A stretch of DNA of 64,000 nt, taken from NCBI GenBank assembly GCA_019419955.1, contig JAHZIB010000003.1, positions 13,749 to 77,748 on the forward strand, read 5' to 3'. The stretch comes from Clostridiales bacterium. Lineage in GTDB: Bacteria; Bacillota; Clostridia; TANB77; CAG-508. The translations under genes and the position numbers were made by a program. The notes below the pieces were generated by a model. The model made no database searches. It was not told the origin of the DNA and saw nothing but the letters and a program-made list of their open reading frames with translations. Positions 1 through 13,740 of the stretch are shown here, in pieces (position 1 is the first letter of the stretch; each line of letters opens with the position of its first letter).

Positions 1-31
1 CTTTCATGATATACCAGAAGGAATATTCTAA
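1..31 (+). pseudogene. End of the upstream half of a split ZIP-family metal transporter gene (gene start is outside the window)
   Basis: nt 2-31 translate FHDIPEGIF-stop. H-x-x-P-E-G is the ZIP/ZupT signature. The frame continues seamlessly at 13438 (PEGISMAVPM...) if 22-13437 is removed. Confidence 0.7.
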
Positions 32-41
32 AGTAGACAGT
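14..41. repeat. attL: shared core CCAGAAGG (14-21) plus element-side arm ATTCTAAAGTAGACAGT (25-41)
   Basis: The core is identical to 13438-13445. The arm is the reverse complement (16/17) of 13418-13434, with a 3-nt spacer on both sides. Confidence 0.75.
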
Positions 42-124
42 GGTGGAAATATGCGAGATAAAAATAATTTTAATTGAAAATATTTAGGAATCTGATATGA
101 TAAAATTTTTAATTGGTTTAATTG

Positions 125-149
125 AAGAGGCTAATGTTAGCCTCTTTTT
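125..149 (+). terminator. Rho-independent terminator just inside the left end of the element
   Basis: AAGAGGCTA-atgt-TAGCCTCTT followed by a T-run. Confidence 0.7.
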
Positions 150-333
150 ATTATTACAAAAGGGTTATAATAAGAGAATATTCTAAAAACAATACAAAAA
201 GGCAATGAAAGTTATATATCATTTAAAGAAATATAATGTAATATGCCGTTTGTCTATTGTGTATATCAAGAACTAAAAATAATACATGAAAAGAGTATAT
301 AGGTATACATTTTCTATAAGAAAGGAGAAATTT

Positions 334-819
334 ATGAATAATAATATTATAAAATTTTTTAATTTTGTAAACTCAGTTTTTAGTACTATTATTGTTGGAA
401 TATCAGAACTCTTTAGTGGACAAAGAGTTCTTTTTCTAGGATATTTAATTCTTAATGTAGTTGATTTCATAACAGGAACAATTAAAGCGAGAATAACAAA
501 AAAAGAGAGTTCACCTAAAGGGTTAATTGGAATATTAAAAAAAGTAGGATATTGGATATTAATATTAATAACTTTTTTAGCATCCTATATGTTATCAAAT
601 TTAGGAAATTTGATTAACATTGACATTAATTTTGTTATTCTTTTTGGATGGTTTACATTAGGTTGTTTAATAATAAATGAATTTAGAAGCATATTAGAGA
701 ATTTAAGTGAATTAGGTATTAACTTACCTGACTTTTTGATAAAAGGTCTAGAAGTTATTCAACATATTATTGAAAAAAAGACTGAAGAAATTGATGATAA
801 TAAAAATGAGAAAAAATAA
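334..819 (+). CDS. Holin, toxin-secretion/phage-lysis holin family (TcdE/UviB-like, Phage_holin_4_1 type)
   Basis: ATG at 334 follows AAAGGAGAAA. Three hydrophobic segments. Family-typical motifs are VDFITGTIKA, GLIGILKKVGYW and EFRSILENLSELG, followed by a charged C-terminal tail. Confidence 0.8.
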   Translation: MNNNIIKFFNFVNSVFSTIIVGISELFSGQRVLFLGYLILNVVDFITGTIKARITKKESSPKGLIGILKKVGYWILILITFLASYMLSNLGNLINIDINFVILFGWFTLGCLIINEFRSILENLSELGINLPDFLIKGLEVIQHIIEKKTEEIDDNKNEKK

Positions 820-840
820 TAATAGGATGTGAGCTTTGAT

Positions 841-1179
841 ATGAAGAAGAAAGATATAAATGACTATATAGATACAGAACTTAGTAAATTCAAATTTAAT
901 AGAACAAGTTTAGGATATAAATACCTAAAAATGGCAATAAAAGATGGGATTCAAGATGAATTATTGATAGAAGATTTAAATAATAGATTATATGAAAAAA
1001 TGCAAAAAGAATTAAATGTAAATAAAAAAAGAATAAAGTGGAATATGGAGAAAAATTTAGATAGTATGTATATTAATACTGATATGAAACAGATAATGAG
1101 TTATTTTTATGTGTCAGAGTGTGAGAAAATCACACCAAAGTTATTTATTACTACTCTTGTAGAAAATTATTTTAGATAA
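841..1179 (+). CDS. Stand-alone Spo0A C-terminal (DNA-binding effector) domain-like protein
   Basis: LGYKYLKMAI ... RLYEKMQKEL ... RIKWNMEKNL ... EKITPKLFI parallels the Spo0A pattern GYxYLxxAI ... LYxxIAKK ... VERAIRHAI ... KPTNSEFI. The start is uncertain (GTG 829 or ATG 841). Confidence 0.55.
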   Translation: MKKKDINDYIDTELSKFKFNRTSLGYKYLKMAIKDGIQDELLIEDLNNRLYEKMQKELNVNKKRIKWNMEKNLDSMYINTDMKQIMSYFYVSECEKITPKLFITTLVENYFR

Positions 1180-12048: not shown

Positions 12049-12137
12049 ATTATATTTTTTTGCATATAATATCTATGAACAACAATTCCAACATAACAGG
12101 GAATACACAAGTAATGGAAAAACATTTCCAATACTTG

Positions 12138-12166
12138 TTGACAGTTCGACATTATTGTTGTATATT
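12138..12166 (+). promoter_or_regulatory. Sigma-A-type promoter for the ATPase gene, with a Spo0A-box heptamer in the spacer
   Basis: TTGACA, 17 nt, TATATT. TTCGACA (reverse complement of TGTCGAA) lies at 12145-12151. Confidence 0.45.
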
Positions 12167-12184
12167 ATATATGAGGTGAAAAAT

Positions 12185-13387
12185 ATGATACAAAGGGATG
12201 CCTATGTAAAAAAACTTATAGATTTTAAGGATAAAGATTTGATTAAAATTATAACAGGAATTAGAAGATGCGGTAAATCCACTTTATTTGATATATATAT
12301 TAACTATTTAAAAGAACAAGGAATACAAGATGAGCAAATAATAAAGCTAAATTTAGAAAGTCAAGATTTTAGTTTTGAAAACTATACAGAGTTATATAAT
12401 TATATAAAAGCAAGATTAATTAATAGCAAAAAGAATTATGTTTTTATAGATGAAGTTCAGCGTGTGGAAGAATTTCAAAAAGCTATAGATAGTTTATATA
12501 TAAATAAAAATATTGATTTATATATAACAGGTTCAAACGCATATCTTCTATCTGGGGAACTAGCAACTTTAATTTCAGGTAGATATATAGAAATAAAAAT
12601 GTTACCACTATCTTTTAAAGAATATATGTCCGCATTTGATGAAAATATAGATAAACAAGAAAAATTATTGGATTATTTAAAATACGGTTCATTGCCACTA
12701 ACAGTCGAACTATTTAAAACAGATCCGGATTTGATAGAAAGTTATATTGATGGTGTATTCTCTACTGTTATATACAAAGATGTAATGCAAAGAAATAATA
12801 TAAATAATAAAATGTTACTGGAAAGTATTATAAAATATATCTTTAATAATATAGGAAGTCCAATAAGTACTAAAAAAATAAGTGATACTTTAACAAGTAT
12901 GAATAGAGCTACAAGTAATCATACAGTAGAGAATTATATTTCAGCTTTAATAGATGCGTTTATACTATATAAAGTGGATAGATTTGATGCAAAAGGGAAA
13001 AATGTTCTTGCAAGTGGGTATAAATATTATGTAGTTGATATGGGATTTAGAGCACATATGCTTGGAAAAAAAGCTGGACAAGATATGGGGCATATACTGG
13101 AAAACATAGTTTATTTAGAATTGTTAAGAAGAGGATATAAAGTATATACGGGTAAAGTAGATGATTTAGAAATAGATTTTGTATCAGAAAATAAAAATGG
13201 GTTAGAATATTATCAAGTATCATTAACTACAAGAGAAGAACAAACATTAGAAAGAGAACTAAAGCCATTACAGAGGACAGGAGACTTTTACCCTAAATAT
13301 TTATTAACAATGGATAGAGATTTAGAAGCAGATTATAATGGAATAAGGAAAGTGAATGTAATGGATTGGCTATTAGATGACAAGTAA
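12185..13387 (+). CDS. AAA+ ATPase with a DUF4143-type C-terminal domain (COG1373-like)
   Basis: Walker A is GIRRCGKST, Walker B is YVFIDEVQ. The layout is typical of AAA_14/DUF4143. ATG 12185 follows GAGGTG. Confidence 0.8.
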   Translation: MIQRDAYVKKLIDFKDKDLIKIITGIRRCGKSTLFDIYINYLKEQGIQDEQIIKLNLESQDFSFENYTELYNYIKARLINSKKNYVFIDEVQRVEEFQKAIDSLYINKNIDLYITGSNAYLLSGELATLISGRYIEIKMLPLSFKEYMSAFDENIDKQEKLLDYLKYGSLPLTVELFKTDPDLIESYIDGVFSTVIYKDVMQRNNINNKMLLESIIKYIFNNIGSPISTKKISDTLTSMNRATSNHTVENYISALIDAFILYKVDRFDAKGKNVLASGYKYYVVDMGFRAHMLGKKAGQDMGHILENIVYLELLRRGYKVYTGKVDDLEIDFVSENKNGLEYYQVSLTTREEQTLERELKPLQRTGDFYPKYLLTMDRDLEADYNGIRKVNVMDWLLDDK

Positions 13388-13417
13388 TTTTTAAATAGAA
13401 ATATAATTAATAAACCA

Positions 13418-13445
13418 ACTGTCTACTTCAGAATCAACCAGAAGG
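13418..13445. repeat. attR: element-side arm ACTGTCTACTTCAGAAT (13418-13434) plus shared core CCAGAAGG (13438-13445)
   Basis: Mirror image of attL. Confidence 0.75.
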
Positions 13446-13740
13446 GATATCAATGGCGGTTCCTATGAAGAGTGGAGGAATGAAAGCGTCAAAAGTTATT
13501 TTTTATGTTATTTTATCTGGTGTTACTACAGGGATTGGTGCTTTCTTTGGAGCTATAGTAGGAGGAATATCACAAGAAATTATAGCTTTATGTTTGGCGT
13601 TTTCTGCAGGAGCAATGATATATATTGTATCTGGTGAGCTAACTCCAGAATCGAATAAGTTATATAGTGGTAAATTTACTGCGATAGGCAATTTGTTAGG
13701 TTTCATAATTGGTGTAGTTGCTATGAATGTTACTGTATAA
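13438..13740 (+). pseudogene. Downstream half of the split ZIP-family metal transporter gene
   Basis: PEGISMAVPMKSGG...GAFFGAIVGG...LAFSAGAMIYIVSGELTPES matches the ZIP C-terminal TM pattern (LafAAGaMlyVv.dElIPE). Confidence 0.75.

Follow-up and report, generated by a model that had tools for sequence, protein, structure and literature searches.

How does a gut bacterium come to carry a metal-transporter gene in two pieces that lie about thirteen kilobases apart? The question is raised by a stretch of 64,000 nucleotides (nt), hereafter the window, from contig JAHZIB010000003.1 (positions 13,749 to 77,748 of the forward strand) of the Clostridiales bacterium assembly GCA_019419955.1, whose host is an uncultured gut Clostridium with a G+C content of about 27%. 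In this study, we consider it very probable that the pieces are separated by a 13,424-bp integrative cassette, which was placed by its own large serine recombinase (LSR) in a gene for a ZIP (ZupT-like) metal transporter. The window begins within this gene, and the final seven codons of the 5′ ZIP fragment (FHDIPEG; 1-21, forward strand) run on into the element for three codons up to a TAA stop (29-31), nt 2-31 translating as FHDIPEGIF*. At the far end, nt 13438 onward translate as PEGISMAVPMKSGG and remain open to the stop at 13740; the 3′ fragment occupies 13446-13740 (forward strand), where gene callers give a 95-amino-acid (aa) open reading frame (ORF) at 13453-13740. The left flank that is missing from the window was obtained from a public contig, L019, which is 99.99% identical to the window and was reached by an exact look-up of the 335-aa cargo protein. 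In this contig, a peptide-chain release factor gene is followed by the entire 5′ fragment (184 aa, L019 6674-7228), the element and the 95-aa 3′ fragment. Joining the two pieces at the core produced an 840-nt ORF that encodes a 279-aa ZIP protein (PF02535). In an alignment of the joined protein with the solved BbZIP, HNFPEG and HDIPEG matched HNLPEG and QDVPEG, which shows that the insertion cuts within the second motif; we take the two to be the transmembrane-4 and transmembrane-5 metal-binding motifs. A first-pass annotation, which had been made from the letters of the window, had claimed that the ZIP gene was split by an element and had proposed aligning the joined ORF with intact ZIP proteins. 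Both the claim and the check held, as the intact orthologues are collinear and gap-free across the junction (FHDIPEGISMAVPMKNGG in P0001 and FHDIPEGISMAVPM in intact orthologues) and the joined protein was found exactly, residue for residue, in a collection of 15 billion proteins (P0122). The insertion would break the transporter within the Glu codon of HDIPEG and leave fragments of 184 and 95 aa, which are presumably inactive, with transport lost.

Does the locus also exist without the element? Six contigs from six different samples of the same species have the order release factor, intact ZIP, PMT_2 glycosyltransferase and PcrA, and each matches, without a difference, the 162 nt expected once the element is deleted, so that no base was duplicated or lost at the site. 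The search for an empty site in related genomes, which had been suggested along with the original claim, was thereby successful, and the flanks of the empty and filled loci are 99.9-100% identical. Of the tests that the first-pass annotation had named as able to refute its claim, none did so. In one of these contigs, L028, window positions 1-21 are joined straight to 13446 onward; on the right side it matches the window at 100% identity over 7,440 nt, and on the left at 99.88% over 6,666 nt. The DNA that is missing from the empty site corresponds to 22-13437 (a segment without strand) and, with one copy of the core added, the element measures 13,424 bp, which corrects the size that the first deletion had implied. 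The element is common in the species, not fixed; the idea of fixation, which had been hinted at by the first protein search, was dropped once the exact joined protein had been found.

As all of these sequences are metagenome assemblies, a chimeric join might in principle mimic an insertion. We give such an artefact next to no chance and regard it as ruled out, because the filled structure of 13.4 kb with both of its junctions recurs at 99.8-100% identity in assemblies made independently from separate samples and the empty site was found independently six times. One contig that diverges within the element, L002, does point towards an assembly problem: to the right of 9188 its sequence is exactly that of the window, whereas leftwards (L002 1-5735) the rest of the element is replaced by genes for an Obg GTPase and an SLH-domain protein of 1143 aa. 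L002 is either a chimeric assembly or a rearrangement. A separate observation concerns the metagenome-assembled genome CAMMEP01, in which two contigs (L014 and L015) overlap by 55 nt and break 5 nt beyond the core, the pattern of an assembly-graph fork; this suggests that filled and empty alleles coexist in that sample.

Which sequences took part in the insertion? The 8-bp core CCAGAAGG is present at 14-21 and 13438-13445, exactly where the first-pass annotation had placed it, but its length was underestimated: the exact direct repeat is 9 bp, ACCAGAAGG, at 13-21 and 13437-13445 (neither copy assigned to a strand), and the match amounts to 13 of 14 positions over ACCAGAAGGRATAT. The inverted arms that had been described inside the element, ATTCTAAAGTAGACAGT at 25-41 and ACTGTCTACTTCAGAAT at 13418-13434, are indeed reverse complements at 16 of 17 positions. 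An inverted repeat of at least 16/17 arose in none of the 5000 shuffles of the two 60-nt element ends and, since the arm is also kept at the junctions of unrelated cargo elsewhere, chance is excluded for the arms. They belong to the two half-sites of attP, the site on the free element, for which no strand was assigned either: the P′ half-site (19-42), which is kept as ATTCYAAAGTAGACA in 53 metagenome left junctions (attL), and the P half-site (13418-13442), which is kept as ACTGTCTACYTYRGAATCWACCAGA in other genomes, where it adjoins unrelated cargo. As reconstructed, attP is a dyad at 19 of 26 positions with its centre at CCAG|AAGG, as had been proposed, and this is retained across the element family; the whole site would be about 48 bp long, with two 24-nt half-sites making up an imperfect dyad. 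The reconstructed chromosomal site, attB, is TGATATACCAGAAGGGATATCA (junction letters CATGATATACCAGAAGGGATATCAATGG) and is carried by the six empty-site contigs, while the predicted junction letters of attP are CTTCAGAATCAACCAGAAGGAATATTCTAAAG; the two sites have ACCAGAAGG-R-ATAT in common.

The enzyme that would act on these sites is encoded within the element itself. The LSR that had been claimed at 10483-12048 (forward strand) proved to be an intact ORF of 521 aa with the Resolvase (PF00239, 1e-22), Recombinase (PF07508, 7e-25) and Zn_ribbon_recom (PF13408, 1e-7) domains, all above the Pfam cut-off, and a weak DUF4368 match of 17.9 bits, which is under the 25-bit Pfam cut-off. For the catalytic domain, the best match among the solved structures is TnpX from Tn4451, at 43% identity; over the full length, the best solved relative is SprA of SPbeta. 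Ser19 in YIRLS, which aligns with the serine of YERLS in TnpX and of YTRVS in the TP901-1 integrase, is presumably the catalytic serine of the YxRxS motif. The recombinase reached none of the CcrB, CcrC and XisF cut-offs and is less than 42% identical to every phage protein in a collection of 50,697 phage records. A small ORF with a GTG start (10293-10388, forward strand; 31 aa, VKEEFLIKICFDGKGEELEKVISNLLLRKIN) lies 95 nt upstream. Besides the recombinase, it is the sole coding segment that is common to the other element types, in which it has 41-42 aa and the motif F.I..FD.KG.ELEK.IS, and this makes it a candidate directionality or accessory factor. A sigma-E/K -10-like sequence, CATACATAT at 10240, which was noticed by eye upstream of the small ORF, was dropped because its spacing and consensus fit poorly.

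Is the integration module confined to this species? The arm plus core, AACTGTCTACYTYRGAATCWACCAGAAGG, recurs directly upstream of ZIP 3′ fragments in other species, beside unrelated sequence (L022-L027), and arm and core adjoin differing cargo in L018, L022, L024 and L025; the L018 genome has a related left end after the same ZIP 21-mer. Between the window and L022, the recombinases are 91% identical, compared with 84% for the host PcrA and 81% for the C-terminal ZIP fragment (ZIP-C). A recombinase of 523 aa, P0138, keeps identical cargo beside ZIP-C in four or more host flanks that are plainly distinct, which requires recent horizontal spread. The cargo in this case comprises UvrD-type helicases, a glycosyltransferase, a kinase and four enzymes that resemble those of dTDP-sugar synthesis. 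In a six-frame comparison, the element types had in common the recombinase, the small ORF that precedes it by 95-143 nt and the attR (right junction) arm region and, against L018, the left end as well. The conserved unit consists of the two arms, the small upstream ORF and the recombinase, and the cargo is exchangeable. A left-arm scan of metagenome contigs returned 62 loci which, pooled with the loci that had already been collected, gave 53 attL junctions in 14 host-flank clusters and 15 element-left-end clusters. The great majority (47/53, in 12 host-flank clusters) lie in the HD(I/V)PE codons of ZIP, and the remaining six lie in the H-loop codons (VTHDISE) of an ATP-binding cassette (ABC) transporter ATPase, whose DNA, CATGATATATCAGAAGG, is one core base off the ZIP site (L056, L059, L061, L067, L071 and L077, the last on the reverse strand near 3609). 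The family spreads among related Clostridium species, and its insertions always fall in the ZIP motif or in the near-identical H-loop sequence. Among the collected loci, complete small family members with attL and attR in one locus were all of the window type.

The variation among these junctions also narrows down where the strands are exchanged. Core position 6 in the attR of L034 and L041 is a host-specific G (CCAGAGGG), and core position 1 in the attL of the ABC-ATPase sites is a host-specific T (TCAGAAGG). If every member has the same core in attP, these host-derived bases place the exchange within positions 2-5, CAGA, that is, 15-18 in the left copy of the repeat and 13439-13442 in the right one. 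The dyads of attP and attB both centre on the G|A step, so that GA (17-18 in the left copy) is predicted to be the central dinucleotide, and it is non-palindromic, as directionality demands. Integration would then be a recombination of attP with an attB located where the gene encodes H-D-I-P-E-G-I-S, within the transmembrane-5 metal-binding motif, with strand exchange inside CAGA, and excision at the same dinucleotide would rebuild the ZIP gene exactly.

Several points weigh against the reading of the locus as a cassette that was inserted by its own recombinase. The attB dyad, which the first-pass annotation had also proposed, is real and has the same centre as attP (TGATAT/ATATCA plus CC/GG) but is weak, with 9 of 20 matches over 20-nt arms. 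The crossover interval presupposes that CCAGAAGG is present in the attP of every family member and that none of the variant bases arose by later mutation. The recombinase is presumed to be active from its intact ORF and conserved motifs, and the attP junction pattern GAATCWACCAGAAGGWAKATTC, which would mark a circular or tandem form, had no match in IMG/VR, nor among the metagenome contigs that include the 53 attL junctions; the arm plus core had no match in IMG/VR either. Scans with Pfam and PHROGs, which covered the element ORFs other than the small ones of the window copy at 8234-9128, recognised neither a relaxase nor genes for type IV secretion or phage structure, and thus no function that would carry the element between species. 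Prevalence, too, is expressed in contigs and not in de-replicated strains: the N-terminal ZIP fragment (ZIP-N, 184 aa) is present on 86 contigs of the collection and ZIP-C (95 aa) on 106, while the intact gene was found on four contigs by cluster look-up and read on seven by contig look-up.

Could the element instead be a decayed prophage remnant, immobile, with fossil junctions and a presence or absence that was inherited from old lineages? A holin and a 795-aa protein that matches phrog_15213 (1.8e-114) do point to a phage ancestry for part of the cargo, the sigma-factor gene in the window is frameshifted, no circular junction was found in the two collections searched, and 22 of the 22 contigs that were read for the cassette's ATPase have the same integrated context. 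However, Pfam and PHROGs identified holin and lysin-like proteins only, and the whole element had no DNA match among the 50,697 phage records. The recombinase ORF is intact and is 91% identical across species whose housekeeping genes have diverged more, the flanks of filled and empty loci are nearly identical, and the presence of an identical family cassette in at least four host backgrounds argues that the integration module was active recently. We therefore find a prophage remnant improbable. A tRNA-targeting island was ruled out, as the Rfam and transfer RNA (tRNA) scans were empty.

The exactness with which excision would restore the gene invites another explanation, which the first-pass annotation had put forward as an inference. 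The element would be a regulated gene-intervening element that stays integrated during growth and leaves when cued by sporulation (in the mother cell), a shortage of metal or stress, so that the transporter is rebuilt; known cases are skin in sigK, SPbeta in spsM, gin in gerE and yin in yabG. The host forms spores, and a Coat_F gene and sporulation-type genes lie downstream; three Spo0A-type regulators are part of the cargo. The element is present in roughly 93-96% of the assembled instances of the species, the closest full-length solved relative of its enzyme is the SprA recombinase, the conserved small ORF ahead of the recombinase is reminiscent of the 42-aa GirX, and phage structural genes are absent from the scans, as in gin (PMC5595907). 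However, the second target in the ABC ATPase and the interchangeable cargo describe a horizontally moving cassette. In six samples, the empty allele is the assembled majority state, which indicates that loss or absence occurs in the germ line. In the sister clade, ZIP has become a frameshifted pseudogene, and this speaks for its being expendable in this niche; an assembled attP junction was missing from both IMG/VR and the metagenome contigs. A sigma-70 promoter scan returned 107 sites compared with 102 expected from shuffles, which in such A+T-rich DNA is uninformative on sporulation promoters. To our knowledge, neither a ZIP transporter nor the ABC ATPase is a mother-cell-specific or sporulation gene. 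A regulated switch is in our opinion unlikely, with perhaps a small chance of being correct.

The closest sister clade does not have the element, and its ZIP pseudogene contains one extra C inside the 8-bp core, CCAGAG-C-GGCATCTCA (L006 2236-2252; L042 and L043 near 2990). The extra base is common to two lineages with diverged ZIP DNA, one of which has a second frameshift upstream, and the probability that a random frameshift would fall in the core is about 0.01. The additional C may be the scar of an abortive cleavage, a mutation that destroyed the landing site or a matter of chance. A different lesion was seen in L017 (reverse strand 6493-6950), where attB is intact and a +1 frameshift occurs later in ZIP; just past the ZIP stop lies a 47-aa fragment that is 64% identical to recombinase residues 383-429 and may be a relic of an older element. 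In L034, L039 and L041 (near 12000), the final ZIP-fragment codons read GLIIRNYSNVIC instead of GLIIGIIAM in three host backgrounds; this looks like a terminal frameshift and may reflect decay of the interrupted gene. As a long shot, a TnpX-like recombinase, maybe without a separate excision factor, might flip a sub-population between a cargo-on/transporter-off and a transporter-on state, possibly coupled to Spo0A, or the +1 base of the sister clade might be a true cleavage scar. If the former were true, the switch would be a heritable on/off control of zinc uptake in a gut spore former, possibly tied to sporulation through the Spo0A-type regulators of the element; if the latter, the recombinase would have permanently mutated its own landing site in the sister clade.

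How does the cassette compare with known systems? Its kind is ordinary: gene-splitting serine-recombinase elements are common, and current concepts are unchanged by it. The enzyme is closest to those of the clostridial TnpX/TndX transposons, while the behaviour is closest to that of the staphylococcal cassette chromosome (SCC)-like cassettes and of gin. Its likeness to Tn4451/Tn4453 (TnpX), Tn6104 and Tn5397 (TndX) lies in the 43% identical catalytic domain and in the weak, sub-cut-off tail of DUF4368, a domain that is typical of the TnpX/TndX clade (PMC10083194). TndX of Tn5397 needs no partner for integration and excision, its central dinucleotide is always GA, and the DNA that it targets codes for a conserved protein domain, Fic (PMC4430133); a predicted central GA and a target that codes for a conserved protein domain are what our element shares with it. 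An exchange of regulatory cargo is also known from Tn6104, in which a two-component system and sigma factors were swapped (PMC4430133), and several target genes that share one DNA motif are a further feature in common with the Tn4451/Tn5397 group, as is the resemblance of the target to the circle junction, here seen in the sequence shared by attB and attP. Unlike in that group, no mobilisation gene, oriT or conjugation module was recognised in the scanned ORFs, and the recombinase is located at the element end, reading outward to attR. Moreover, with two targets only and a long motif of about 17 bp, the system is far more site-specific than TnpX.

A second group for comparison is that of the sporulation intervening elements: gin in gerE of Bacillus cereus (GirC/GirX), skin (SpoIVCA), SPbeta (SprA-SprB), skinCd and yin in yabG. 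Like gin, the cassette is a non-phage LSR element that splits a coding region, and SPbeta supplies the SprA enzyme mentioned above. With this group, the cassette shares an imperfect inverted repeat around a 9-bp shared att sequence and the exact restoration of the frame on excision, and its small ORF near the recombinase resembles the 42-aa GirX of gin (PMC5595907; PMC10747680). It differs from these elements in its metal-transporter target, its horizontal spread, its interchangeable cargo and the empty alleles in the population. SCCmec (CcrA/B/C) is similar in another respect, as these are non-phage, non-conjugative LSR cassettes with variable cargo that use one conserved gene in related species. 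CcrC is the best NCBIfam match of our recombinase, but its score of 103.6 bits is so far under the cut-off of 900 that the enzyme is not a Ccr. The target of SCC elements is the 3′ end of rlmH, a gene that is left undisrupted, whereas here the insertion is within ZIP and disrupts it. In Listeria, excision of the A118 prophage restores comK as a conditional switch ("active lysogeny"). The serine integrase of A118-type prophages inserts inside the coding region of comK (PMC3556126), much as happens in ZIP, but A118 is a complete prophage with demonstrated conditional excision, while phage structural genes are absent here. The parts of the supplements of the LSR catalogue by Durrant et al. that were available to us contained neither the att sequences nor any ZIP entry, and a literature search found no paper that joins "large serine recombinase", "attB" and "ZIP family".

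The significance of the locus lies in the fully specified and naturally validated set of recombinase, attP and attB (half-sites, crossover interval, empty site and a second natural target), which is raw material for genome-engineering tools. It also indicates that one integration module ferries varied cargo among related gut Clostridium species by targeting DNA that codes for an invariant metal-binding motif. The cargo differs between its carriers, with lysis-like and regulatory genes in the window and sugar-nucleotide, helicase and kinase genes elsewhere. In Clostridioides difficile, a ZupT-type transporter is important for zinc acquisition under metal restriction by the host. Given this role, carriage of the cassette may bring a fitness cost or benefit in the gut.

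What does the window copy carry? Just inside attL, a promoter-like site with TG, TTGAAA-16-TATGAT (74-101, forward strand), lies in a left-end block that is semi-conserved among the family and could serve as a promoter, and it is followed by an intrinsic-terminator-like hairpin (124-147, forward strand), which in the circular form would come after the recombinase-ATPase operon across attP. The first gene encodes a holin of the toxin-secretion/phage-lysis type (334-819, forward strand; Phage_holin_4_1, with TIGR01593 above its cut-off), whose 177-aa ORF has no exact public match, as the public calls use a later start. Three proteins have the Spo0A C-terminal DNA-binding domain, identified by domain match: a stand-alone Spo0A_C protein (829-1179, forward strand), a response regulator with a Spo0A_C output domain (2062-2781, forward strand) and a second response regulator with a weak Spo0A_C match (7106-7861, reverse strand). 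Their presence, one stand-alone and two with receiver domains, on a mobile cassette of a spore former is an observation in its own right, and such proteins might interfere with the sporulation decision of the host. Two proteins without a family match, of 201 aa (1234-1839, reverse strand) and 335 aa (2804-3811, forward strand), each have a hydrophobic N-terminal stretch as judged by eye. The 795-aa protein (4165-6552, forward strand) combines PG_binding_1 with an Rv2525c-like glycoside-hydrolase domain and matches phrog_15213 over about 700 residues.

Further to the right, the sigma-70 region-4 gene (8234-8806, forward strand) is broken, with 94 aa compared with 130 aa in L003 and L021, and a T run at 8485-8492 is one base shorter than in those contigs (the gap was placed at 8492). 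A homopolymer of variable length may be the cause, or else a difference between assemblies. Two small genes of 140 aa (with a weak helix-turn-helix match) and 81 aa (9348-10022, forward strand) are specific to this element type and are retained in the variant contig L002. Finally, an AAA_14/DUF4143 ATPase (12155-13387, forward strand; called from 12185 in public contigs) lies between the recombinase and attR. Its match to PDC-S01, a candidate for phage defence in PADLOC, spans the full length (1.6e-153), and a homologue that is 38% identical to the ATPase occupies the same position in the L025-type element.

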